A stretch of DNA of 64,000 nucleotides, from positions 2,111-66,110 of the forward strand of contig JAZOOK010000184.1 of assembly GCA_045654965.1 (NCBI GenBank). The letters run 5' to 3'. Shown here piece after piece: positions 1 to 16,637 of this stretch (its first letter is position 1; each line of letters starts with the position of its first letter). The translations under genes were made by a program, and so were the position numbers. Below the pieces are notes generated by a model that made no database searches, was not told the DNA's origin, and saw only the letters and a list, made by a program, of their open reading frames with translations. Source of the DNA: Candidatus Coprovivens sp. Lineage in GTDB: Bacteria; Bacillota_I; Bacilli_A; RF39; UBA660.

Positions 1-50
1 ACCACTTGCAGTCATATCCAAATATACCCTGTCGAAACCAAGTCTACCCC
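1..50 (-). ncRNA. ssrA: tmRNA (SsrA) 5' end; gene continues off the left edge of the window
   Basis: The reverse complement of 1-50 reads GGGGUAGACUUGGUUUCGACAGGGUAUAUUUGG..., matching the conserved tmRNA 5' acceptor/tRNA-like region (GGGG-N-UUCGACAGGG; B. subtilis GGGGACGUUACGGAUUCGACAGGG). It is preceded on the minus strand by -35 TTCAAA, a 17-nt spacer and an extended -10 TGcTATAAT (plus-strand coords 63-91). Confidence 0.55.
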
Positions 51-118
51 AGGTACGAATAGATTATAGCATAAAATTCCCTATTTTTGAAAGTTTTTCC
101 CTAAAAATCGAGCAAATT

Positions 119-147
119 TTGACACATTTATGGGCCTTTGTTATAAT
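119..147 (+). promoter_or_regulatory. Consensus sigma-A promoter (TTGACA-17nt-TATAAT) for the 275-3957 operon
   Basis: TTGACA at 119-124, an exact 17-nt spacer, TATAAT at 142-147. It lies about 125 nt upstream of the ATG at 275 and is divergent from the ssrA promoter. Confidence 0.6.
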
Positions 148-274
148 CTCGGCAAGTAAGAGGGGTAAACGTCAAAAATTGCTTTGCTATATATATAGAT
201 AAAGTTGACTTTTCTTACATTGTATGTTAGTGTAACTACTCGTAAAAAGAAATTGTTTCAAAGGGGGAAGTTTT

Positions 275-1768
275 ATGACTAAGAAAGAAGCTTTTAGAAT
301 TTTACGTATTACTCATGATATTAAGTATACTTATAAAAATTCAGATGGTACTGTTGATTTTATGGATATAATCGACACTTACAAAGCACAAGCTGAAGCT
401 GATATGCGTGTTGGTACTTATACAACTGTTAATCAATCAAAAATTAATGAAGCGTATAATTACTTACAATCACAATATGTAGCTAAAGCTGGTTCTAGAG
501 CTGTTAGAGCTACTGCTGCTGCAACAACTGGTGCAAGCAAATCTAAAGTTGCTCCAATATTAGCTGGTACTGGAATTTTATTATTAACTGGTGCAATGGT
601 TGTTGGTGGAATTCATATGTTAACTAATATGCCTAAGAGTGCTGGTTTACCAAACCAACCTGGGTATGTTCAAGAAGATGACAGAGACCAAGTTGATTAT
701 AAAGATTATGCTGCATATATGGGTGACTTAACTGATGAAAAAGCAGTTGAAGAAAGATCTGGAGAAATACTTGAATTATTCAATCAAAATGGAATTGTTC
801 ACACTGAAACAAATACTCCATATACTGTAGAAGAAATTCAAACTATTCTTCACTATATGAATGGTGGTATTCTACCTGAAGGTGTTTCAGTAGAAGCTGC
901 TAATACAGCATACTTAAATATGATTGCTGATATGTTTAATACAAAAATAGTATTATATAACTCAGCTTATATGGTAGGTGCTCAAATAATTGATTTTGAT
1001 GGAAATGGTAATATTTTAGATTTCGAAGGTAATATCGTTGATATCAATCATATAGGTTTTGATGAAAAAACTGGATTAACAATAATTGATCCACAATATG
1101 CACACCTATATTCAGAACATGGATTAGGAACAAGTGAACAACACTATAATAGAGCTGTTGCAAATTATATACCTATCGATGTAACTGATTTCCAATTTGG
1201 AGACAGTACTGCATATCCATACTTAGAATGGTTCAGTGCTCAATATAATAAGTTAATGACAACTACTGATAAAAATGAAAAAGTTGCTATATTTAATCAA
1301 TTAACTCAAAGTTTAGCTGATATTACTTATGGTAATGGTTTCCAAATGAAAAATGAAAAAGGAGAAACTATATTAATTCAATATACTGATTTCTCTGATT
1401 ATGATGATGTAAATGATTACAATGCATTAAGAATAGTTGTTTCATTATATCAAGGCGCTAGATCAATAGTTGATTTAGAAGATTATGAACTTGGATATAA
1501 TCAAGAACTTGTTCAAACTCAAGATATGTATAGAATCATCAATAATGGTGGAATATCTGAAGTATATATAGAAGATGTTCTAGACTTATTCAACGCTGCT
1601 TGTGTTGGTGAAGATGAAGAAATGCATATATATGATGAAAATGGAGTTATAGTTGATGGTGATAACTTAGACCAAAGAGCTTATTCTAATACAAGACACT
1701 TATTAGAACAAAATGCTAAGAATGGTAACTTAAGTTATTGGGAAGATCATTACTCATTATCAAAATAA
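275..1768 (+). CDS. Hypothetical bitopic membrane protein: ~95-aa cytoplasmic N-domain, one TM helix, ~370-aa extracellular domain
   Basis: 497-aa ORF with RBS GGGGGAAG upstream. A single hydrophobic segment (ILAGTGILLLTGAMVVGGIHML) at aa ~95-118. No recognisable catalytic motifs. The stop is 32 nt before the next ORF, which has its own RBS (operon). Confidence 0.6.
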   Translation: MTKKEAFRILRITHDIKYTYKNSDGTVDFMDIIDTYKAQAEADMRVGTYTTVNQSKINEAYNYLQSQYVAKAGSRAVRATAAATTGASKSKVAPILAGTGILLLTGAMVVGGIHMLTNMPKSAGLPNQPGYVQEDDRDQVDYKDYAAYMGDLTDEKAVEERSGEILELFNQNGIVHTETNTPYTVEEIQTILHYMNGGILPEGVSVEAANTAYLNMIADMFNTKIVLYNSAYMVGAQIIDFDGNGNILDFEGNIVDINHIGFDEKTGLTIIDPQYAHLYSEHGLGTSEQHYNRAVANYIPIDVTDFQFGDSTAYPYLEWFSAQYNKLMTTTDKNEKVAIFNQLTQSLADITYGNGFQMKNEKGETILIQYTDFSDYDDVNDYNALRIVVSLYQGARSIVDLEDYELGYNQELVQTQDMYRIINNGGISEVYIEDVLDLFNAACVGEDEEMHIYDENGVIVDGDNLDQRAYSNTRHLLEQNAKNGNLSYWEDHYSLSK

Positions 1769-1800
1769 TATAAATATTAAAAATTAAGGAGGGTTTTGTT

Positions 1801-3957
1801 ATGTATGATGATAATGTTACTTACAGAGTAGGAATTAACTGGAAAGACATACTTATAAAATTAATAATGTTAATATTATTCGTTGTTATTCTATTACTGT
1901 TATTTCCTAAAGCTGATTTAGATGTATTTTACGATACTGTCTATTCAAATAATGTAAATACAATGAAGGATGCTGCTAGAAACTATTATACAGTTGATAG
2001 ACTACCTTCAAATGTTGGTGATAAAACATCTATGACATTAAAAGAAATGGTTGATAACCATATGTTAATTAGATTCACTGACAAAGATGGAAAAACTTGT
2101 GATGAAAACAATAGTTATGTTGAAGTTACAAAGGTTTCTAATGATGAATATACATTAAAAGTACAATTAAAATGTGGTGAACAAGAAGATTATATTCTTG
2201 AAACTATAGGATGTACTACAGTATGTTCAAATGGTAATTGTAATACAATTATAAATAATAATACAATTGCTGATGGTTCTCAAAATAATGGTGGAAATAA
2301 TAACACTAATAATGATAACAACAGTAATTGGGATCAAGTAACTGAAGAAGTTAACAAAGGTGGATATACTTATAAGGTTACTTACTATCAACACAGAAAG
2401 AAAATAACTTCTACAAGTGTTGTGTATACTTGTCCTGAAGGATATATTAAAAATGGTACTAAGTGTACTAGTACAACTACTAGTGCTACTATAGATGCTA
2501 CTCCTCATTATAATCCAGATAAAGTTATTACAACTGATGCTAAATATAATGCTGGTGGTTACTATACAGTTTATGCTGATTATATTAAAACACAAACTGG
2601 TATCGATTATAGTTGTCCTGCTGGATATACTTTAAATGGTACTTATTGTATTAAATATACTAGTGCAACTGAAGTTCCTGGGGATGTAAGTTATACTTGT
2701 CCTACAGGTTATACTAAAAATGGTACTAAATGTACTAAGACATATGATGCTACTTATACTGCTGGAGATACAACTTATAGTTGTCCTAATGGTGGTACTT
2801 TAAGTGGTAAGACTTGTACTATAACTCAAGATGCTAGTTCATCAACTGAATATACTTGTCCTTCTGGATATACTAAGAACGGATCAAGTTGTTATAAAGT
2901 TTATAACGCTACATCTAAAACTACTTATAGTTGTCCTAATGGTGGTACTTTAAGTGGTACTAAATGTGTTAAAGAAGGTACTACATATAATGCTGTTGCT
3001 ACAGATACTACTTATGGTAGCTGGGTAGCTAAAGGTACTCAATACTATACTAGTGCTGGTAAAGGATACCAAGGAACTACTTCATGGTTACAATTAAATG
3101 GTATGATTACTGGTGCTGCTTGTGGAAGCCCTTGTGGTGGAAAAGGTACTTGGTATAAATATACTTACTATGAAAGAACAGCTAAAATTGTTTATGGTTG
3201 TCCTAATGGTGGTACATTAAATGGAACTAAGTGTGTTACTTCTGGTTCTTCATATGATGCTACTCCATCAACAACATATAGTTGTCCTAATGGTGGTACT
3301 AGAGATGGTTCTAAATGTACTTTAACTGCTAGTCCTACTACAAGTACTGTTTATAGTTGTCCTTCTGGATATACTAAGAATGGTTCTAAATGTACTAAGA
3401 CTTATACAGCTAGTTCAAATACTGGTGCTGGATCTTATAGTTGTCCTAATGGTGGTACTCTAAATGGTACTAAGTGTACTATTACTAGAGATGCTGATAA
3501 AGTAGTTGGAAATCCAACATATACTTGTCCTGCTGGATATACATATAATAATTCAACTAAAAAATGTGAATATAAGATAACTGCTACTGCAACTGCTGAA
3601 TATTCATATACTTGTCCTGCTGGATATACTAAATCTGGAGAAGGAACAAATACTAAATGTTCTAAAACAGTACAAGGTGAAGGAAACTATTATTGTGAAG
3701 ATGCTAGTGCTGTATTAAATGGTACTAAGTGTGTTAAAACAATAAAAGGTGATATTAGTCATTATACTTGCCCTACTGATTATACTTTAAACGGTACTAA
3801 GTGTTCTAAAACTACTACTGTTACTGTAGATGCTAATAAAGAAACTAAAACATCTACTTCATATAAATATAAATGGAGTAAATATTCTAAACTTGATGGT
3901 TGGGAATTTACTGGTAAAACTAAAGTAGTTACTGAATATAAAGCTGGTCAAAAGTAA
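1801..3957 (+). CDS. N-terminally membrane-anchored Cys-rich tandem-repeat surface protein (novel C-x11-C modules)
   Basis: 718-aa ORF with RBS AAGGAGGG. N-terminal TM (ILIKLIMLILFVVILLLLF), an Asn-rich linker, then ~14 repeats alternating Y[ST]CP[AST]GYTKNG[ST]KC and YSCPNGGTL[NS]GTKC at a ~26-28 aa period. Followed by a rho-independent terminator. Confidence 0.65.
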   Translation: MYDDNVTYRVGINWKDILIKLIMLILFVVILLLLFPKADLDVFYDTVYSNNVNTMKDAARNYYTVDRLPSNVGDKTSMTLKEMVDNHMLIRFTDKDGKTCDENNSYVEVTKVSNDEYTLKVQLKCGEQEDYILETIGCTTVCSNGNCNTIINNNTIADGSQNNGGNNNTNNDNNSNWDQVTEEVNKGGYTYKVTYYQHRKKITSTSVVYTCPEGYIKNGTKCTSTTTSATIDATPHYNPDKVITTDAKYNAGGYYTVYADYIKTQTGIDYSCPAGYTLNGTYCIKYTSATEVPGDVSYTCPTGYTKNGTKCTKTYDATYTAGDTTYSCPNGGTLSGKTCTITQDASSSTEYTCPSGYTKNGSSCYKVYNATSKTTYSCPNGGTLSGTKCVKEGTTYNAVATDTTYGSWVAKGTQYYTSAGKGYQGTTSWLQLNGMITGAACGSPCGGKGTWYKYTYYERTAKIVYGCPNGGTLNGTKCVTSGSSYDATPSTTYSCPNGGTRDGSKCTLTASPTTSTVYSCPSGYTKNGSKCTKTYTASSNTGAGSYSCPNGGTLNGTKCTITRDADKVVGNPTYTCPAGYTYNNSTKKCEYKITATATAEYSYTCPAGYTKSGEGTNTKCSKTVQGEGNYYCEDASAVLNGTKCVKTIKGDISHYTCPTDYTLNGTKCSKTTTVTVDANKETKTSTSYKYKWSKYSKLDGWEFTGKTKVVTEYKAGQK

Positions 3958-3973
3958 TATATATATATCAATT

Positions 3974-4001
3974 AAAAAAGACTTATAAAAGTCTTTTTTT
4001 T
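3974..4001 (+). terminator. Rho-independent terminator of the 275-3957 operon
   Basis: aaaaAGACTTataaAAGTCTttttttt hairpin plus T-tract immediately after the stop. Confidence 0.7.
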
Positions 4002-4096
4002 ATGTGTTTATTAGTTGTTTTTAGGCGTTTTTAGGGTTTTTTGCTATTATATGGATAAATACTTGTTTTAGTGGTATTTATTGCTTATTTATGGGA

Positions 4097-4609
4097 TTAT
4101 TGCATAATAAAAGATATTACACATATGATAAATATTATTATAGCTATTATTCTTCTTACAAATAAGTATTTTCTTGTTAATTGGACTAGTCCACTTATTG
4201 AAATTATCATACATACTATTGATAGATATTGTTGACCTTCTAAATCTTTACATAGCAATTGAACTAGAATGTATCCTATTATACCGATTATTAATAATGC
4301 TATATTTTTTCTATTGTTATTATAATTATTCTTTTTATCTATGTAATCTATAGTTTTTATAATATTCTCTTCTAGTTTTTCAGTATATTCTTTATCTTTT
4401 ATTTTTTCGCCACTCATCAATTCATTAATAGTAATATCAAGATTGTCACATAGTGGTTTAAATAAAGATAAGTCTGGAAGGTTTTTACCATTTTCCCAAT
4501 TACTTATTGAACGATCTGTTACTCCTAGTCTTTCAGCTAACTCTGCTTGTGTTAGTTTCTTTTTCTTCCTGTTTTCTGCTATAAATTTTCCTATTTTAAT
4601 TTGATCCAT
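4097..4609 (-). CDS. Membrane-anchored XRE-family HTH transcriptional regulator
   Basis: N-terminal HTH_XRE (KKLTQAELAERLGVTDRSISNWENGK) followed by 2-3 predicted TM helices. The start is placed at MDQIKIG, with RBS AAAGGAGA 8 nt upstream; the track ORF begins 6 codons earlier. Confidence 0.7.
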   Translation of the reverse strand: MDQIKIGKFIAENRKKKKLTQAELAERLGVTDRSISNWENGKNLPDLSLFKPLCDNLDITINELMSGEKIKDKEYTEKLEENIIKTIDYIDKKNNYNNNRKNIALLIIGIIGYILVQLLCKDLEGQQYLSIVCMIISISGLVQLTRKYLFVRRIIAIIIFIICVISFIMQ

Positions 4610-4717
4610 ATATTTATCTCCTTTCATAACTTAATTCTAAATAAAATCATATAAATATAACACGAACTAGAACTGGAGTTTTGAATAATATAAAAAAATA
4701 AATTACTAAATTGTAAT

Positions 4718-5326
4718 TTATCTTTTTTTTATTTTTTTACACCAAGTCCATTTCCCACATTTAGTACATTTTAATAATCTTCTAGTTGGTGTTTGCATTA
4801 ACAGTGCTATTTCTTTATAGTTAGGAACAAACATATGTTGACAGTTCTTACATTCATAATATCCAGTCTCTACTTTAAATTTAAGTGCAATAATGCAAGG
4901 AATTATAAATAGTATAATAGATACTATTATTAAAAAGTTTTGAAATGCACATTCAGGAATAAGAAGTGATATTAAAGTAATTAAACAAATAAGTGCTATT
5001 AAACTTATTATAATAATCACAAAAGCGGAATGTAGTAATCTTTTATGGTATCTTTCCTCATTTGTAGCCATTTGAATAATCAATTCATTTAATTGTTCTT
5101 CCTTTTGTTCTTTATCAATTGTTTCTCCACATAATAATTCATTTACATTTATTCCAAGAATATTACAAAGTTCGAGCATAATATTTGAATCTGGCATAGT
5201 TTTACCTGTTTCCCATTTTGATATAGCTCTGTCCGTTACATTTAACTTTTCTGCTAATTCTGCTTGTGTAAGTTTTTTCTTTTTTCTGCACTCAGCAATA
5301 AACTTACCTATTTTAATTTGATCCAT
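4718..5326 (-). CDS. Membrane-anchored XRE-family HTH regulator with C-terminal CxxC...CxxC zinc ribbon (tandem paralog)
   Basis: The N-terminal 70 aa are ~70% identical to the 4097-4609 product (MDQIKIGKFIAE.RKKKKLTQAELAE). Two TM segments, then CKNCQ...CTKCGKW. RBS AAGGAGGT. Confidence 0.7.
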   Translation of the reverse strand: MDQIKIGKFIAECRKKKKLTQAELAEKLNVTDRAISKWETGKTMPDSNIMLELCNILGINVNELLCGETIDKEQKEEQLNELIIQMATNEERYHKRLLHSAFVIIIISLIALICLITLISLLIPECAFQNFLIIVSIILFIIPCIIALKFKVETGYYECKNCQHMFVPNYKEIALLMQTPTRRLLKCTKCGKWTWCKKIKKR

Positions 5327-5445: not shown

Positions 5446-6189
5446 TTAATTAAATAATAATGGTATGTTACCATACACAATTATTCTTAATATACCTATG
5501 ATTATGAGATGTAATGGGTAGTATACATAGAAGAACCATTTCAGCCATGTAATTTTACCCTTCTGTCCGTTATACATTTTTAATAATGGATAAACAAGTA
5601 CTACACCTAGTTGGATAATAGCATATACTTTACTTACAAATATGAATGATACTAAGACATAGATTAATGTCCAAAGTATCATGTTTTTCATTTGTTTGTT
5701 TAGGTTACCTCTATGTTCATACATAGTTAGTATTATCATTAATGCAATACTACTCCAATCTGATGAGAATGTTACTAAGTTTAATAAAATTACTAATATC
5801 CATTTTTGCCATTCTTTTAATTTGTTCTTTCCATATACTATATGTAGTGCTACTACGGACCAAGCGAGAGTCCACATTATACTAGTTTGATTAAATATAT
5901 CTCCTGTACTAAATGGAATAAAATTAATACCGAATGCGAAACAATAAGCAAAGTGAGATATAATGGCAAATATAAATAATCTTTTTATATATTTTTTTAC
6001 ATCTTTTGTATAGAAATATCCTTCACATATAAAGAAGAACATAATAGGTGCTGTTAGTCTACCTATGATATGTAATATATTAGGTATTATAAGATTAGGC
6101 ATACCTGGATATAGCAAGTCTGCTATATGATCTATAGTCATAGCAATTATAGCTATTATTTTTAAACTATTTGAATTAAGTCTTTTCAT
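5446..6189 (-). CDS. traX: TraX-family polytopic membrane protein
   Basis: The N-terminal LKIIAIIAMTIDHIADLL matches the TraX family signature (LKxIAxxxMxxDHI). Multiple TM helices, 247 aa. Confidence 0.55.
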   Translation of the reverse strand: MKRLNSNSLKIIAIIAMTIDHIADLLYPGMPNLIIPNILHIIGRLTAPIMFFFICEGYFYTKDVKKYIKRLFIFAIISHFAYCFAFGINFIPFSTGDIFNQTSIMWTLAWSVVALHIVYGKNKLKEWQKWILVILLNLVTFSSDWSSIALMIILTMYEHRGNLNKQMKNMILWTLIYVLVSFIFVSKVYAIIQLGVVLVYPLLKMYNGQKGKITWLKWFFYVYYPLHLIIIGILRIIVYGNIPLLFN

Positions 6190-6219: not shown

Positions 6220-7158
6220 TTATTTTCTTGTTAACGCTTTTACAAATTGTTTTGGTTTATCAACATGAATACCATGACCACAATCAAATCGTTCTATTTT
6301 CATATTACTGATTAATTTATTTACTTGTTCTAAATCTTCATCAGTTAAAGCTCCTTGAATTAAACCATCGTCATCAATAGTAGTTTTTGCCTTCAAAAAT
6401 AATGTTTCACATTTTATATTCGATAATATTTTATTATAATCAACATTTGCATTAAATGAGTCATTATAAAAACTTTCTCCAAAATAAGGATCATAGTTTT
6501 GTATTCCTCTAAATGCTTCTAAAAATTTCTTAGGCCAAAACATTACTTTTAAATTTTTGTCTGGATGTTTTTCTCTATACTTTAAAGCAAGTTCTCCTAA
6601 CTTTGTTCTAATTTTTTCTCTAGAATCATCAGGAAAGAAGTTCCAACAATATTGATTTATAAAATAGTAATATACAAAATCTTTTATTTCGTCTTGAGAT
6701 ATAAATTTATGACATATAGTTGATAAATCTACATAATTGTATGTATTAAATCTTCTATCTCCAACACTTGCAAAAAATGGTGGGTCTTCTAATATAAGTT
6801 CAGAACATAATTCACACTTCGATGCAATGTATGAAGCAATAAGACCACCAGAAGAATGACCTAAAACTGAAACATTATCTTTAATCACTTCTTCTATAAA
6901 TTTAATAATATCATTACCAATATCTATTAAATTATATTTTTCTCTATTAAAAGAACTTTTTCCATGTCCATAACAATCAACTAAATAAATATGAAAATGT
7001 TTTGATAATTTATCAATCACATTCATAAAACTTAATGAATTAGTTCCTTGTGCATGAAGTAATAATAATTTTGGTTTATTTGTTTTTATTTCATAATAAT
7101 TAAGAATACTCTTATCATCTATTTTAAATTGATTATTAATAATTCTCATAATTTTCAA
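6220..7158 (-). CDS. Alpha/beta-fold hydrolase
   Basis: HGxG-like oxyanion region (LLLLHAQGTNS), nucleophile elbow GHSSGG, C-terminal catalytic His (CGHGIHVDKP). Confidence 0.65.
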   Translation of the reverse strand: MKIMRIINNQFKIDDKSILNYYEIKTNKPKLLLLHAQGTNSLSFMNVIDKLSKHFHIYLVDCYGHGKSSFNREKYNLIDIGNDIIKFIEEVIKDNVSVLGHSSGGLIASYIASKCELCSELILEDPPFFASVGDRRFNTYNYVDLSTICHKFISQDEIKDFVYYYFINQYCWNFFPDDSREKIRTKLGELALKYREKHPDKNLKVMFWPKKFLEAFRGIQNYDPYFGESFYNDSFNANVDYNKILSNIKCETLFLKAKTTIDDDGLIQGALTDEDLEQVNKLISNMKIERFDCGHGIHVDKPKQFVKALTRK

Positions 7159-7207
7159 CTCACTTTCAAATTGCTATTTATTTAACAAACTACTAAATTG
7201 TAATTTG

Positions 7208-8047
7208 TTACTTAGATTTTAGTTGCACTATAACTAACTCGGGTCTATTATTTACCCTAAAAGGAATAATACTATTTCCAATCCCTCTACTAACTATCAT
7301 ATTAGTATGAGCTTCTTTAAATTTTCCACTAGTATATTTAGGAAAAAATCCTTGATTTGGAGATATTAAACCACCTATGAATGGTATTCTTACCTGTCCA
7401 CCATGAGCATGACCAGTTAGAACTAAATCTAATTCATTATCAACATAAGTATCAAACAATTCAGGACGGTGTGATAACAAAATACTATAATTATTTTTAT
7501 CATAATTAGTATCAGTTAACTCATTTTTAATCTTTTCGCTATCTAAAGCATATGGATGATAAGACATATTTGGATCATTAATACCAATTAAGTTTATTTT
7601 CGCATCATCAATTTCTAATACTTCACTCTTATTATCTAATACAATAACAGCTTCATTTTCTAACTTCTCTTTTAAAGCTTCATATTCACCGATACTTGCT
7701 TCATGGTTACCAGTAATAAAATATATAGGGGCAATACCTTTTATTCTTTTTATAAAACTAATTGCTACATCAATATCTGTCTTTCTAGAATCAACTAAAT
7801 CTCCAGTTATTACTATAACGTTTGGTTTTTGTATCTTTATCTCCTTCACTAAAATATCAGTTAATTTATTCGATTTAGTATTATGAAAATCTGATACTTG
7901 AACTATTTTATATTCATTAAACTCTTTTGGTATTCTACTATTTATAATATCATAGCGACTAACTATTAATTCAGTATTTTGGAAATATAAATAATAACAC
8001 AACAATACTGTCACTATAAGAATTATAATTATTGTTTTTTTCTTCAT
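7208..8047 (-). CDS. Calcineurin-like metallophosphoesterase (YkuE-like) with N-terminal TM/signal
   Basis: Metallophosphoesterase motifs D-x-H (VSDFHN), GDLVD, GNHE, GHAHGG. N-terminal hydrophobic segment. Confidence 0.7.
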   Translation of the reverse strand: MKKKTIIIILIVTVLLCYYLYFQNTELIVSRYDIINSRIPKEFNEYKIVQVSDFHNTKSNKLTDILVKEIKIQKPNVIVITGDLVDSRKTDIDVAISFIKRIKGIAPIYFITGNHEASIGEYEALKEKLENEAVIVLDNKSEVLEIDDAKINLIGINDPNMSYHPYALDSEKIKNELTDTNYDKNNYSILLSHRPELFDTYVDNELDLVLTGHAHGGQVRIPFIGGLISPNQGFFPKYTSGKFKEAHTNMIVSRGIGNSIIPFRVNNRPELVIVQLKSK

Positions 8048-11842: not shown

Positions 11843-12901
11843 TTATCTTGAATATGCGTGTTGAGGTTGTTGTTGATTAACTTTAAATAGTTTTTTTACT
11901 TTTTGTAAACCGTTTTGAACACTCGTTTTTATTCTATTAAATGTATTGTTTCTAACTAGAGTTGTTTTCTTTCTTGATAAAGCTAAAGCTGTTAGTTTAT
12001 TTTCTCCAGCTTGTTGTTTAAATGATTCAACTCTATTAGGATCTGTTCCAAAGTTTCTTTCATATATGTTATATATCATTTTTGATAATTTTGTTTCAAG
12101 TGTAATAGCAGCTATGCTTTCTGGTACATATGATAATTCATATAATTTATCTAAGCCTTGGATTATTTCTTTTAATTCTGTTTGTGTGCAAAATTTACCA
12201 AGTTGTTGTAGAAATGCTGGTAAATTACAAGTAAAGTAGTAATGAGATATTACTTGAGGATTAGGAAAGAATCTTTCTAATAATTTTACTATTCTAACTA
12301 ATCTAGGATATGCTAATATTTGTCCGTTTGTAAATAGTCTTGAATTTAGTAATTCAGTAAATCCTTCGTTTAATCCAGTACAAATAATAGTATCACCTTT
12401 TTGTTGCATAAATCCGTGGTAATGGATGTCTTTTTGTCTATTGTACATATAACTAGCCATATGTAACATTTCATGACCTAGAATTGATTTGGTATTTTTT
12501 GCATATTTAATAATGTTTTCACTACCGTTATAGCAACCAGTTACTCCTGTTTTTTTTATTTCATCACTTTTTATTACTTTTAATGTTGAAAAGTTGTTTC
12601 TAGCAATTCTAATATCTTTACCTATTGATCTTTCCAATTGTTCCATGTATGTTTTTACAATTTCTTTATTGTTATAATCTATAGGTAAATTAGTTGGGAG
12701 TGAATTATAGCATGTTTCTATTTGTCTACTATCTGATATAACAAATCCTTGATCTGCATAATGATTAGAATGTTGTAATCTTACATTTATTTTTTGATTT
12801 GCTTTATATTGTCTGTATAAGGAAACTGTTCCACATGCACATAATATTGGTATTGTTGCTGGAAACATTATCATTACTAATCCTTGTATTGTATTGTTCA
12901 T
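11843..12901 (-). CDS. Membrane-anchored putative gluzincin-type zinc metallopeptidase (HEMLH...NEGFTE)
   Basis: 352 aa; N-terminal hydrophobic segment; HExxH (GHEMLHM) with a downstream GLNEGFTE, the candidate third zinc ligand. No close family recognised by eye. Confidence 0.4.
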   Translation of the reverse strand: MNNTIQGLVMIMFPATIPILCACGTVSLYRQYKANQKINVRLQHSNHYADQGFVISDSRQIETCYNSLPTNLPIDYNNKEIVKTYMEQLERSIGKDIRIARNNFSTLKVIKSDEIKKTGVTGCYNGSENIIKYAKNTKSILGHEMLHMASYMYNRQKDIHYHGFMQQKGDTIICTGLNEGFTELLNSRLFTNGQILAYPRLVRIVKLLERFFPNPQVISHYYFTCNLPAFLQQLGKFCTQTELKEIIQGLDKLYELSYVPESIAAITLETKLSKMIYNIYERNFGTDPNRVESFKQQAGENKLTALALSRKKTTLVRNNTFNRIKTSVQNGLQKVKKLFKVNQQQPQHAYSR

Positions 12902-12983: not shown

Positions 12984-13835
12984 TTATTTTTTACTAAATT
13001 CAACGATTTCTTTATAGATTAATTTTATTTGATTTTGTTCTTCTTCTTTGTAATTTATTAGTAGTTTATCAAGTTTTTCTTCTTCTTTTAATTTAGTATT
13101 TTTTAGTTCATTTTCGAAATTTGATATTACTAATTTAATACTATCTTCATCTGTTAGTCTTTCATATGAATTTATTTGCATTATTCCATATTTTGTTTCT
13201 TTTTTTGTTACAGCTCCTATATAAGCATTAATGCTTCTATATATCTTAGGAGTTTTAAAATCTTCATATATCATTATTGCATAAGTTAAGTTGTTTACTA
13301 AATTGTTTTTGCTTTTTATAATGTTTGAATATTTGTTTTTGAATTTTGCAAATTGCATTATTGTTTTTTCTGTTCTAATTTTAGCTGTTTTTGCTTTTTC
13401 TACGACAACTTTATTTTTAGTTGTTAAATTATATAAATATACAATATATATCAGTATTAGGAACCATATGAAACCTTTTATATCTTCTGGATTTGGTACT
13501 ACTGTTTCTACTTTTCCGATGAAATAGTTGTAGATAAATAAACTCAATCCAATACTAAGTATGTTTTCAATTATGAATGAGAATGCGCTTGATTCTTGTT
13601 GACGATTTATAATATTGGTAATATAGAAGTTTCTAATAAATATTTCAAATATTACTATTAGAAATATATTTTCTTTTACGCTAGGTATTAATGCTGATAC
13701 TACTATTATATAAATAGATGGTATTAACAATTGATTTATCTTTTTATTATCTTTGTTTTGAAAGCAATTTAAAATAATTGTTAATGGTATTGTTAATAGT
13801 ATTTGTAATATGATTGTTGTAAGTGTCATAAGCAT
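12984..13835 (-). CDS. Hypothetical polytopic membrane protein with charged cytoplasmic C-terminal domain
   Basis: 283 aa; 4-5 predicted TM helices in the N-terminal 150 aa; Lys/Glu-rich C-terminus. Confidence 0.45.
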   Translation of the reverse strand: MLMTLTTIILQILLTIPLTIILNCFQNKDNKKINQLLIPSIYIIVVSALIPSVKENIFLIVIFEIFIRNFYITNIINRQQESSAFSFIIENILSIGLSLFIYNYFIGKVETVVPNPEDIKGFIWFLILIYIVYLYNLTTKNKVVVEKAKTAKIRTEKTIMQFAKFKNKYSNIIKSKNNLVNNLTYAIMIYEDFKTPKIYRSINAYIGAVTKKETKYGIMQINSYERLTDEDSIKLVISNFENELKNTKLKEEEKLDKLLINYKEEEQNQIKLIYKEIVEFSKK

Positions 13836-14168: not shown

Positions 14169-16637
14169 CTATTGTACGTCTTTATTTTCTAGACCATTTA
14201 TATATTGGTCGAAATCATTTGCTAAATTTTCACTTGATGTATCATCAGAATTTGTATCATCTGTTTCTACATTGAATATTGTATCAATTGATAATTTTTT
14301 ATTTGTTGATGTAGTTTCAATTTCTTGTGGTGCTGGTGATGCAAACATTGCATCTATATCTAATGGTTGATTATCGTCGTTATCTTCCGATCTTGAATTA
14401 AAGATAATATCATCTATTTGTTGATCCAATGTTTCATCTTCTTCTTCAACTGCTTCTAGTGGCATTTCAACCGGTAAATCTTCTACTGTTGGAGTTAACG
14501 CTCCTGCTGTAAATGTGTCTGCCATATCTGTTGCCCCCTCTGCTGTTTCTGTTGATAAAGATTGTGGTTCAACCACTTCAACTGGAATTTCTTCAACTAT
14601 TGGAGTTGGTTCCTCAACTACTGGTATTTCTACTTCAACTGGTGTTTCTTCTACTACTGGAGTTGGTTCCTCAACTACTGGTATTTCTACTTCAACCGGT
14701 GTTTCTTCTACTACTGGAGTTGGTTCCTCAACTACTGGTATTTCTACTTCAATTGGAGCTTCTTCTACTACTGCAATTGGTTCTTCAATTACAGGTGTTT
14801 CTTCTTCAACCGTATCTTCTAAAGAATTTGTTATTACTTCATTAATAGATTCTTCAGGTTCTTTTATTTTTGATTCTTCTTTTTCTTTAGTAGTCGTTTT
14901 TTCTTTTTCTTCAATATTTTCGATTAATGATTGTAATTCAGCTTCTGCTTCTTGTTGTTTTGCAGATGAAGTAGATTCATCTTCAATATTTGTTTCTACT
15001 TCAGTTTCTTCTATTACCTTAATACCACGTTTTCCATCTTGTTTATTATCTTGATATTCTTCATAATCTTTTTTTACTATATTTGAAGTATTTTCAATTT
15101 GAGTTATATCTATATCTTTTATTAATTTAATATCTAATGCTTCTTCTAGTCGTTTAACTATTTCTAATGGTGTTTCAGGGAATTGGCGACGATGTTTAAT
15201 GTCGATAACTGTTTGTGCTAATTCTTTTAATGTATCTTTATCTTTATTTTTTGTACCTATATCAATTAGACCTGATTTTTTAGAAGTTAATCTGTTTTTT
15301 ATTGTTTCTATTTCTTTTTCGGCTAATTGAATGTTTTGGTATAATCTTTCACACTCATATTTAATAGTTCTTGTTGCTCTAGCTATATCATCTGATTCAT
15401 CTTTTCTAAATGCTGTTGCTATTTTTTCTGCTTCAATGATATCTATTCTTTTTTCATCCATAGCTGCTTTTATACTAGCTTTTGCTCCAACATTCATATC
15501 TGGAACTTCTTTATATGCTTTTTCATATTCACGAAGATCTTTTTTCATTGATTGAATCATTTCTTGGATAGATTGATTTTTAACCTCGTAATTATATTCT
15601 CTATCTCTATCAATAATATCTACTTTAGATTTTAATTCATTTAACTCTTGACTCCATAATGAAATACGTTCATTTAAGAATTCTATTCTAACTTTTTCTG
15701 GTGTGTTCGATTCTAGAATATTATAACTTTTTTGTTCAATTTCATTAGCAAATGTGTCACGAGCTTGTGTAGCTTTTAAAAGTTCTTCTTCCAATGCGTT
15801 ATCCGCTGGAACATTGATATAAGGAACTTTGATAACTGTATTTATTAGACTTAATAAGTAAGGTCTAGCATTTTCAATATCTTCTTTATCGTTTATTACA
15901 TCTTTTATTATTGATTCTATATATTTAGGATCTTTTCTTATTTCTTCTAATCTTATTACTGCTTTTTGAACTTTAGATTCTAGTTCAGCAATTCTTTTAT
16001 CTGTTTTTTCTCTTTTTGATTTATCTATGTAGTTTTCTCTATTCTCTAAGCTTGCTTGTGTTTCTGCTAGTAACTTTTTCTTTTTATCTATTTTATCTTC
16101 AATATTTGCGATTTCATTAGATACTTCAATAATTGCTTGTTGTACTCTTTCGTATGAATAATTGTGTTCTTCTAATTCATCTACCAATTGAGATATCTTT
16201 TCTGTTGTTTCTGCTATTAATCCGTTATAACGATCTATTACTTCATAATCAGTAGCCTCGTTAATACGTTCTTGCATGCTTGCAATGTATTTTTCTTGAC
16301 TTAATTTGTTTTCTCTTAATAAAGAATTACTTGCATATAAATTTTGTTCTTCTTCTTTAAGTTTATTAAGTTCTTTGTTTTTTTCTTTTAAAGTTGTTTT
16401 TAATGTTTGTAAATGTTTTTTTGTAATTATTTCGATGTTTCTGTCCGCCATTTCAGCGCTAGTATCATAACTTTCTTCTTCTGATAATGTTTTTATTTCT
16501 TCGATTTCTAGTTTGTACGCATCTACTTTTTCTATTATTTCTTCTTCTTCAATGCGTAATGATGGACCGTCACTTTTAGAACGACACATTTTTACTAATA
16601 CATCTAAATTCCAAAAAACTTTTAACTTATCGTCCAT
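14169..16637 (-). CDS. Large coiled-coil protein with Pro/Glu/Val-rich tandem repeats and acidic C-terminus
   Basis: 822 aa; heptad-rich, Lys/Glu-rich for ~600 aa; C-terminal third contains 3+ copies of the 19-aa unit VEEPTPVVEETPVEVEIPV; no TM segment. Confidence 0.6.
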   Translation of the reverse strand: MDDKLKVFWNLDVLVKMCRSKSDGPSLRIEEEEIIEKVDAYKLEIEEIKTLSEEESYDTSAEMADRNIEIITKKHLQTLKTTLKEKNKELNKLKEEEQNLYASNSLLRENKLSQEKYIASMQERINEATDYEVIDRYNGLIAETTEKISQLVDELEEHNYSYERVQQAIIEVSNEIANIEDKIDKKKKLLAETQASLENRENYIDKSKREKTDKRIAELESKVQKAVIRLEEIRKDPKYIESIIKDVINDKEDIENARPYLLSLINTVIKVPYINVPADNALEEELLKATQARDTFANEIEQKSYNILESNTPEKVRIEFLNERISLWSQELNELKSKVDIIDRDREYNYEVKNQSIQEMIQSMKKDLREYEKAYKEVPDMNVGAKASIKAAMDEKRIDIIEAEKIATAFRKDESDDIARATRTIKYECERLYQNIQLAEKEIETIKNRLTSKKSGLIDIGTKNKDKDTLKELAQTVIDIKHRRQFPETPLEIVKRLEEALDIKLIKDIDITQIENTSNIVKKDYEEYQDNKQDGKRGIKVIEETEVETNIEDESTSSAKQQEAEAELQSLIENIEEKEKTTTKEKEESKIKEPEESINEVITNSLEDTVEEETPVIEEPIAVVEEAPIEVEIPVVEEPTPVVEETPVEVEIPVVEEPTPVVEETPVEVEIPVVEEPTPIVEEIPVEVVEPQSLSTETAEGATDMADTFTAGALTPTVEDLPVEMPLEAVEEEDETLDQQIDDIIFNSRSEDNDDNQPLDIDAMFASPAPQEIETTSTNKKLSIDTIFNVETDDTNSDDTSSENLANDFDQYINGLENKDVQ
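14601..14771. repeat. Three near-perfect 57-bp tandem repeats inside the coiled-coil protein gene
   Basis: The unit tggagttggttcctcaactactggtatttctacttcaac(t/c)ggtgtttcttctactac starts at 14601, 14658 and 14715, with degenerate flanking copies. Confidence 0.8.

Follow-up and report, generated by a model that had tools for sequence, protein, structure and literature searches.

What do two adjacent genes outside any curated family do when they stand behind a consensus promoter, back to back with ssrA, in a bacterium of the gut? This question is raised by the beginning of a 64,000-nucleotide (nt) stretch of Candidatus Coprovivens sp. (contig JAZOOK010000184.1, positions 2,111 to 66,110; the whole stretch is hereafter called the window; G+C content 29.7%), in which the list of open reading frames (ORFs) shows ORF1, encoding 497 amino acids (aa), followed after 32 nt on the same strand by ORF2, encoding 718 aa. 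The initial annotation, made from the letters of the sequence, had described a tightly linked operon next to ssrA for two N-terminally anchored extracellular proteins without catalytic motifs, and our analysis bore this outline out. Each gene has its own Shine-Dalgarno sequence, the 5′ end of a divergent gene for transfer-messenger RNA (tmRNA) was recognized by Rfam at the window edge, and scans with Pfam, NCBIfam, PHROGs and PADLOC returned no catalytic family for either product. As read from sequence, ORF1 is bitopic, with ~91 residues in the cytoplasm, a hydrophobic segment at ~92–116 and ~380 residues outside, and in ORF2 the first 16 residues precede a hydrophobic segment at 17–35, the remainder lying outside. 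We favour, with a probability of about 0.5, the reading that ORF2 is a surface fibre built of a pilin-derived anchor, a linker, a stalk of the type found in the conjugation protein TraN and a contact tail, and that ORF1 is its membrane-tethered partner.

The repeat array of ORF2 comprises 14 units that follow the pattern Y-[ST]-C-P-x-G-[YG]-T-x-x-G-x-x-C and have a C-x10–15-C spacing and a 25/28-aa period that is visible in the DNA as 11–12 diverged copies with a 75/84-nt period. In the AlphaFold2 (AF2) model the array was predicted to be all-β, with a predicted local distance difference test (pLDDT) score of 75–86. A Pfam scan of 59 aligned relatives returned cEGF (PF12662) in 19 of the 59 (best 8e-12), EGF_Tme5 in 7 and the PBCV-1 P7 disulfide subdomain in 6, with the window ORF2 itself falling under the cEGF threshold and going unreported at E ≤ 1. 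The repeat is, judged by its pattern and these matches, a predicted disulfide-closed β-hairpin resembling the C5–C6 half of the epidermal growth factor (EGF) domain, with which it has the C-P-x-G-Y-x-L-x-x-x-x-x-C hairpin in common. Unlike EGF, whose six-cysteine unit is paired C1–C3, C2–C4 and C5–C6, each ORF2 unit has two cysteines, lacks C1–C4 and stands in a bacterial context; the likeness may reflect common descent or convergence.

A second relationship of the array was found on plasmids. When 72,556 plasmids were searched by tblastn, 38 records matched the array, from Sphingobium, Sphingopyxis, Shewanella, Burkholderia and others. The best match lay inside a 1058-aa traN of Sphingopyxis sp. 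DBS4 plasmid pDB-1 (WP_306999122.1), situated between trbC and traF in a traC-trbI-traW-traU-trbC-traN-traF-traH-traG cluster, and BLASTP of ORF2 against this protein gave E = 2e-56 with 32–35% identity over 540–660 residues. Two flavours of the unit, YSCPxGYxLxGTxC and YSCPNGGTLNGTxC, are common to ORF2 and TraN and run in tandem over about 500 residues. On an MPF_F plasmid of Sphingobium the array again stands at the place of traN, and in Shewanella it lies beside lepB-trbC-traU. Because the Pfam domain F_T4SS_TraN (PF06986) is limited to residues 761–1005 of WP_306999122.1, outside the part aligned with ORF2, the array of TraN constitutes an unannotated N-terminal extension. In the Shewanella xiamenensis plasmid pHDC555-1 (L081, 7001–12841; record marked UNVERIFIED), the array is found in and around a 237-aa ‘hypothetical’ coding sequence (CDS; 7149–7862) just upstream of a 1467-aa ‘Ig-like domain-containing protein’ and next to lepB-trbC-traU; the gene models may be fragmented there, or both CDSs may formerly have been one giant TraN-like adhesin.

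TraN is a mating-pair-stabilization protein of the donor outer membrane with an extended, disulfide-rich β N-domain and a variable receptor-binding tip, and its N-terminal region contains at least 20 cysteines, all able to form disulfides (PMC9246713). Like the long TraN of MPF_F systems, ORF2 has a Cys-rich extracytoplasmic β region, as indicated by its 35 cysteines, the all-β prediction and the homology itself. It differs from TraN in lacking the C-terminal PF06986 domain, in its chromosomal location outside any tra/trb cluster, and in its predicted anchor, a pilin-like helix at the N-terminus that sits in a Gram-positive-type membrane, whereas TraN resides in the outer membrane. The initial annotation had considered the repeat unassignable to any known family, and had set homology to a described adhesin repeat against its own proposal. 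With relatives matching cEGF and the array aligning with long TraN, the notion of an unknown repeat falls, and the notion of adhesion, which it had put forward as well, gains.

The repeat does not make up almost all of ORF2, as had been supposed: a pilin-like module (residues 1–137), a linker (148–188), a non-hairpin insert that interrupts the array (390–466) and a tail (673–718) are all non-repeat. The AF2 model of the whole chain, computed from 59 homologues (mean pLDDT 74), shows a transmembrane (TM) helix at 14–34, a second helix at 40–62, four strands up to residue 137, disorder at 138–188 and then β-hairpins to the C-terminus. The N-terminal module can be divided into a short leader, the segment G11/INWKD16 (here and below the slash marks the −1/+1 boundary), a TM helix at 17–35, an α1-C helix at 40–62 and a four-stranded sheet with invariant C100 and C125. 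A profile of 34 such N-domains (A3) aligned by hhalign with four true prepilins over 126 columns at 95.7% probability (E = 8.6e-9), staying in register across the signal region and on through the head, so that G11 takes the place of Gly(−1), I12 that of +1 and D16 that of Glu5. Searched against 5.8 billion proteins, A3 returned mostly short fragments together with two prepilin links. One is the true prepilin P0225 (KG/FTLIE), retrieved at E = 1.5e-5; the other, P0223, is a 140-aa protein in which a prepilin N-terminus (MKKA/FTLIE) is joined to a head ~95% identical to ORF2 78–135. P0223 is encoded on a metagenome contig of 533 bp and is a pilin that recombined in nature or else a chimera made by the assembly. 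BLASTP of ORF2 residues 1–150 against a modular prepilin (KKG/FTLVE) encoded at a related locus, L055, gave E = 1e-3, in register along the TM helix, α1-C and the first head strands. Among PDB sequences, geopilin was the best match of A3, in register at a non-significant E = 0.71.

Class III signal peptides combine a hydrophilic leader ending in Gly(−1) with ~20 uninterrupted hydrophobic residues and usually Glu at +5 (PMC10191384). ORF2 departs from this pattern, with no Pfam N_methyl match (PF07963 / IPR012902) at E ≤ 1, a hydrophobic stretch broken by K15 and K20 (W14 and K15 are invariant in the family and K20 is nearly so), and many relatives in which Gly(−1) and the acidic +5 residue are missing (N/N in L001, R at −1 in L002, K/A in L024). 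For these reasons we read the N-terminal module as a probable pilin derivative that has for the most part left filament assembly behind and would now anchor the protein in the membrane. With a lower probability, processing may persist in the subfamily to which the window ORF2 belongs. At L055 (1534–5512, in a metagenome-assembled genome (MAG) labelled Erysipelotrichaceae), the ORF2 homologue is followed by the gene for the modular prepilin, a true type IV pilin of 625 aa with a Pfam N_methyl match, Listeria-Bacteroides repeats and a Cys-rich Ephrin_rec_like region, and then by priA, a gene that in L050, L075 and L077 comes immediately after the ORF2 homologue itself.

The order of modules in ORF2 is that of modular type IV pilins such as PilB and PilC of Streptococcus sanguinis, in which a pilin module precedes a large grafted module presumed to bind ligands; pilins extended in this way by an adhesion module are widespread (PMC8179133). 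ORF2 could be a genuine modular minor pilin, cleaved after G11 by a prepilin peptidase, whose pilin module is polymerised at a filament tip (Com or type IV) and displays the array as the adhesive part, ORF1 being accessory or unrelated. Such a role is consistent with the in-register alignment, with the true prepilin genes of related genomes, among them the one directly downstream of the L055 homologue, and with the joining of a canonical prepilin N-terminus to an ORF2-like head in P0223. We nevertheless regard it as rather unlikely. In addition to the deviations listed above, the charges of the conserved K15 and K20 would fall within α1-N, unlike in class III signal peptides; no canonical prepilin is encoded within the 64-kb window; pilin genes stand beside the pair in just 2 of ~78 loci; P0223 may be chimeric; and ORF2 is encoded apart from pilus machinery, its conserved neighbour and partner being instead the J-like bitopic protein ORF1.

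At the opposite end of ORF2, the C-terminal tail is among the three most conserved peptide patterns of the family and lies outside the alignment with TraN; residues Y690, W692, S693, G700, W701, T704 and G705 are invariant in the family alignment (A2). The 14 hairpin units account for 28 of the 35 cysteines. The total is odd in 63 of the 71 complete ORF2 homologues, though the non-hairpin cysteines differ by subfamily, which have either a tri-Cys motif at 138–147 directly after the pilin module (about half of the subfamilies) or extra cysteines near 351, 376, 450, 511 and 675. This recurrent odd number hints at one cysteine that would be free or bonded to another molecule. C443, the sole cysteine of ORF1, was considered as a universal partner for it; this speculative pairing was dropped, as the corresponding column holds Cys in only 25 of 61 homologues.

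ORF1 itself matched nothing in Pfam (E ≤ 1), NCBIfam, PHROGs or PADLOC, and its family is narrow, since 1.84 billion cluster representatives, scanned in full with HMMER, yielded just 55 relatives; 21 homologues are close. In its AF2 model (pLDDT 65), helices at 3–9, 29–46 and 54–78 (pLDDT ~75–90), placed as in a J domain, precede a disordered stretch, with the TM segment inside it, and an α/β region at 152–460 (pLDDT 70–88). A profile of 32 diverse members of the family (A4) matched J domains in the PDB with E = 3.5e-12 at positions 10–75, with Sec63 among the weaker matches. Pfam DnaJ (PF00226) was passed by 14 of these 32 members but not by the window protein, and the upstream gene of distant loci carries DnaJ. 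The His-Pro-Asp (HPD) motif between helices II and III of J domains is needed to stimulate the ATPase of Hsp70. Residues 1–90 of the window ORF1 lack it, and among the homologues inspected L018 alone has it, the A4 consensus reading ‘nnng’ at the HPD position of DnaJ. The cytoplasmic part is J-like in some members of the family, a coiled coil in others, and in others again gone, with a lipobox or signal sequence in its place. The exodomain, by comparison, carries the family homology; the PDB offered no match to it, either by fold (best E 0.24) or by sequence. A 12-residue stretch of it, DFDGNGNILDFE (residues 240–251, window 992–1027), conforms to the EF-hand Ca2+-loop pattern D-x-[DN]-x-[DN]-G-x-[ILV]-x-x-x-E and is matched 13 times in P0169, a protein of 2652 aa; as a feature of the family this loop, D240–E251, was rejected, because the closest subfamily is the only one to have the insertion.

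E. coli DjlA and eukaryotic Sec63 likewise carry a J-type three-helix domain on a single TM segment, but ORF1 differs from them in lacking HPD, in having a J-like part that is too degenerate for Pfam and dispensable in the family, and in placing its large conserved domain, which has no known relative, on the opposite side of the membrane. The initial annotation had suggested, besides adhesion, that the pair might be a sensing system. The fibre or the ORF1 exodomain would then sense a cue that the J-like domain relays, for instance by recruiting DnaK, for which E. coli DjlA is a model. A bitopic protein with a folded cytoplasmic domain in the AF2 model, a family profile clearly related to J domains, a canonical HPD retained in L018 and XRE-type regulators near the operon, in the window and at several related loci, are all compatible with such a device. 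However, HPD is missing from the window ORF1 and from all homologues inspected but one, the XRE family is promiscuous and its genes keep no conserved position, and the cytoplasmic part is the least conserved part of ORF1, being swapped for a coiled coil or lost in lipoprotein forms in which the exodomain and the pairing persist. Because this part is variable and dispensable, we disfavour the sensing idea and hold it to be quite improbable.

We then asked how far the gene pair extends beyond the window. ORF2 has at least 766 homologues, and GTDB species-representative genomes contain 283 stretches that match the ORF2 alignment, of which 77 loci were kept, almost all from uncultured gut-associated MAGs. 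Their labels are mostly Bacilli, Tenericutes, Mollicutes and Erysipelotrichaceae, with some Muribaculaceae, Firmicutes and Eubacteriales; Candidatus Coprovivens, Coprobacillus sp. CAG:605 and Clostridium sp. CAG:628 are named members. With an iterated ORF1 profile, an ORF1 homologue was found upstream on the same strand in 53 of the 71 loci with enough upstream DNA. The gap is 27 nt or less in 47 of these 53, and in the other 6 a gene of ~300–360 aa intervenes. Two lipoprotein versions of ORF1 added by hhalign (94%) bring the pair to 55 of 71, so that the co-conservation on which the initial annotation had staked its proposal holds. The pairing is real, not absolute; four loci share only the pilin-like N-terminal module, followed by a different, Cys-poor C-terminal part, and have no ORF1. 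A three-gene subfamily, whose fibres have no tri-Cys motif, is composed of a J-like bitopic protein, a TM-anchored protein of ~300–445 aa and the fibre gene (L001, middle gene at 6943–7980; L024, 5084–5998; L027, L029, L031, L034, L035 and L049). The middle protein is a paralogue of ORF1 most clearly in L001 (4e-33), and also in L027 (3e-05) and L029 (5e-11).

Related loci have housekeeping genes as neighbours (ribosomal operons, priA, ssrA), and ARAGORN located a divergent tmRNA gene 75–270 bp upstream of the operon in 33 of 60. The linkage to ssrA persists at loci where the first gene encodes a different protein with a twin-arginine (Tat)-type signal and at L057, where the ORF2 homologue stands alone, and the other flank is not conserved. 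Bacterial ssrA genes are classical integration hotspots, where islands enter at the 3′ end. This property, the homology of the array to TraN and a TraX-family gene 1.5 kb away could be explained if the operon belonged to a conjugative or mobile element and encoded a Gram-positive mating-pair stabilizer. We judge that to be very improbable: apart from the missing F_T4SS_TraN domain, the neighbourhoods examined contain no integrase, relaxase, coupling protein or type IV secretion system (T4SS) gene, and TraX is unlinked to the operon in other loci. The position of the operon also counts against this reading, and led us to reject an island integrated at ssrA: it lies on the 5′ (promoter) side, not at the 3′ end, in an arrangement kept in distant relatives. 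Because the place beside ssrA is kept across relatives with only ~30% ORF2 identity, the operon is, as far as these comparisons of sequence indicate, chromosomal and vertically inherited, and appears to share a divergent promoter region with ssrA.

The promoter region deserves separate mention. The textbook TTGACA-17-TATAAT promoter noticed at the outset (P1) is an extended −10 site scoring 12/12 and the sole 12/12 σ70 site within positions 1–4700. The leader of ~125 nt that it had been assigned turned out to hold a second and more widely conserved promoter (P2), which aligns in most of the 18 homologous leaders compared. The element shared by these 18 operons reads GATAAAG-TTGAC(T/A), 17 nt, TGnTA(G/T)nnT, with the conserved GATAAAG just 5′ of the −35 hexamer of P2, and its copy in the window lies about 40 nt before the start codon. 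At loci with short leaders, a site of the TTGACA-17-TAGTAT type 30–60 nt before the start codon, the counterpart of P2, is the sole promoter-like site; P1 and P2 stand in tandem at some loci, and P2 alone at others. The conserved element (196–233) could be a regulated promoter or the binding site of a regulator. Promoters scoring at least 11/12 occurred upstream of 24 of 51 homologous operons compared with 9 of 300 control segments, and because they recur in this way, strong transcription appears to be a conserved property of the locus, as judged from promoter sequence. The leader RNA showed no unusual structure (folding z = −0.88) and no Rfam family, and a riboswitch or structured leader was rejected on these results. 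The description of a strongly expressed surface or adhesion pair was therefore upheld as regards recurrent strong promoters and strengthened as regards adhesion by the homology to TraN, with the level of expression itself a prediction.

Strong conserved promoters, the spread of the operon through the lineage (283 stretches) in housekeeping contexts such as ssrA, ribosomal operons and priA, and a repeat number that varies widely across the family (21 to 55 cysteines), as for a spacer of tunable length, could also describe a structural element of the envelope, either a wall-spanning strut or a surface coat or spacer, that is organised by ORF1 and has no specific ligand. We find this unlikely, as the high conservation of the distal tail of ORF2 points to a specific interaction, the array has its closest relatives in TraN, a protein of cell–cell contact, and no S-layer or wall-binding domain was detected in ORF2.

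Taken together, these results are best accommodated by ORF2 as a surface-exposed contact fibre and ORF1 as its partner. The hydrophobic helix within residues 1–137 would hold the protein in the membrane, the N/G/D-rich disordered spacer could cross the wall, ~480 residues of disulfide-stapled β-hairpins would form an extended stalk, and the conserved Trp-rich tail would probably make the contact. On the strength of the homology between its array and that of TraN, a mating-pair stabilizer, the job of ORF2 would most likely be contact with or adhesion to another cell, host material or a particle. The ORF1 exodomain, always tethered to the membrane, be it through a TM helix or, as in some relatives, through lipid, would probably dock, assemble or stabilize the membrane-proximal base of ORF2, and its J-like domain would be accessory, since HPD has been lost and the domain is dispensable across the family.

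Several points weigh against this proposal. The predicted template modelling score of the whole-chain ORF2 model is only 0.29, by which the geometry of the stalk is not fixed, and neither the ORF1 nor the ORF2 model had a significant fold match in the PDB. Neither an LPXTG motif nor a wall-binding domain was found; no thiol-disulfide oxidoreductase was identified, and the host is presumably anaerobic. The abundance of the fibre is suggested by promoter sequence only. Concerning TraN, we know of no study on the function of the repeat array itself, the experimentally studied short enterobacterial TraN was not among the 38 of 72,556 plasmid records that matched, and receptor binding in enterobacterial TraN maps to the variable ‘tip’ (PMC9246713). 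Finally, eight loci (L042, L044–L047, L053, L054 and L061) have, in place of ORF1, an unrelated upstream protein of 320–420 aa with a Tat-type signal (SRRxFLK/SRRQFMQ), whose gene still lies between those for tmRNA and the fibre; the upstream protein of L032 is bitopic and unrelated, and three loci have no plus-strand partner. Because of the Tat-signal protein and these few partnerless loci, ORF1 cannot be strictly required by the fibre. A more far-reaching version of the proposal, which we put forward as doubtful, is that the pair forms an undescribed surface organelle throughout this lineage of uncultured, small-genome gut Bacilli, with a former filament pilin as the membrane socket, a TraN-type fibre for contact with other cells or the host and a dedicated, membrane-tethered partner whose J-like domain may couple export or assembly to chaperones; the persistently odd cysteine count would in addition leave room for a covalent intermolecular disulfide link.

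Phage, defence and plasmid origins of the pair were rejected: tblastn of ORF1 and ORF2 gave no match among 50,697 phage records, and neither had a PHROGs or PADLOC match. A fold match in BFVD to an unnamed viral protein of 981 aa (E = 3.7e-12, TM-score about 0.07) shows only that hairpin-rich proteins of a similar predicted kind occur in viruses. Converging on the operon from the other strand are genes for two XRE-type helix-turn-helix membrane proteins, a TraX-family protein, hydrolases and pheST. The XRE-type proteins (4097–4627 and 4718–5326, −) are tandem paralogues with C-terminal hydrophobic segments, and seven related loci have genes of this type at various places no more than 6 kb from the operon. 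TraX of F plasmids is the enzyme that acetylates F pilin. The closeness of the TraX-family gene (5446–6189, −; PF05857, E = 1e-31) to ORF2 is probably a coincidence, as no related locus shows this adjacency, and a functional tie of the operon to TraX or to the XRE regulators was rejected, the arrangement not being kept in related loci. Between pheST and an rpoA/ribosomal-protein cluster lie three consecutive ORFs of 352, 283 and 822 aa (11843–12901, 12984–13835 and 14169–16637, all −) with no Pfam match at E ≤ 1e-3. The hairpin that follows the ORF2 stop codon escaped the consensus scan for terminators because its stem has fewer than three G-C pairs; directly after it, between the converging genes, is a T-rich 10-nt tandem repeat (TTTTTAGGTG, 4.5 copies, 3997–4041). 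The features of the operon are collected in the table.

Table. Features of the ssrA-linked operon, in window coordinates.
Feature	Position	Strand	Basis and remarks
ssrA (tmRNA), 5′ end	1–50	−	Rfam RF00023, model positions 1–53, E = 3.7e-4; truncated at window edge; points away from operon
Candidate ssrA promoter, TTCAAA, 17 nt, TATAAT, with TG	63–91	−	10/12, consensus match only; back to back with P1
P1, TTGACA 119–124, 17-nt spacer, TATAAT 142–147, TG at 139–140 (extended −10)	119–147	+	12/12 plus TG
P2, TTGACT 205–210, 17 nt, TGtTAGTGT 225–233	205–233	+	Alignment of 18 leaders
ORF1 Shine-Dalgarno, GGGGGA	263–268	+	Sequence; AAAGGGGG kept in aligned leaders
ORF1, bitopic N-in/C-out membrane protein	275–1768	+	ORF list
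ORF1 residues 1–70, degenerate J-like three-helix domain without HPD, predicted cytoplasmic	275–484	+	AF2 and family profile
ORF1 residues ~92–116, TM segment (VAPILAGTGILLLTGAMVVGGIHML)	548–622	+	Sequence; basic residues before, acidic after
ORF1 residues 118–497, family-specific α/β exodomain, the core that the family conserves	626–1765	+	AF2, homology searches
ORF2 Shine-Dalgarno, AAGGAGGG	1786–1793	+	Sequence
ORF2, N-terminally anchored Cys-rich putative surface protein	1801–3957	+	ORF list
ORF2 residues 1–137, degenerate type IV pilin module	1801–2211	+	AF2, hhalign, profile search, BLASTP
ORF2 residues 138–188, C-x3-C-x4-C, then low-complexity N/G/D-rich linker (148–188)	2212–2364	+	pLDDT below 50, predicted disordered
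ORF2 residues 189–672, 14-unit β-hairpin array	2365–3816	+	Cys spacing, DNA repeats, AF2
ORF2 residues 673–718, conserved C-terminal tail SYKYKWS...[ED]GW.FTGKTK, distal end	3817–3954	+	Alignment A2
Intrinsic-terminator-like AT-rich hairpin, 11-bp stem, 4-nt loop, T run	3974–4001	+	Fold and sequence; after ORF2 stop

Neither protein belongs to a curated family, and the combination of a degenerate pilin module, a TraN-type hairpin array and a J-like bitopic partner was not found in the libraries or literature searched; the components and the probable surface-adhesin role are of known kinds, and the architecture is likely undescribed. Through the assignment, a repeat that accounts for half of some TraN proteins, although the Pfam model of TraN does not include it, receives a name and is seen in a second context; this could help to explain how long TraN variants reach recipient cells. 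ORF2 also exemplifies a pilin module that has apparently found a new use away from filament systems. If the organelle outlined above exists, the shared repeat would be a record of modules exchanged by conjugation adhesins of Gram-negatives with a chromosomal surface protein of a Gram-positive. The Bacilli concerned (Candidatus Coprovivens, CAG:605, CAG:628 and ‘Tenericutes’ MAGs) are common in animal and human guts, with no cultured representative among the genomes recovered, and our searches found nothing on the means by which they contact their surroundings. A strongly promoted, lineage-wide fibre would be a good candidate for their main adhesin, and it may provide a handle for their enrichment, imaging or antibody capture.

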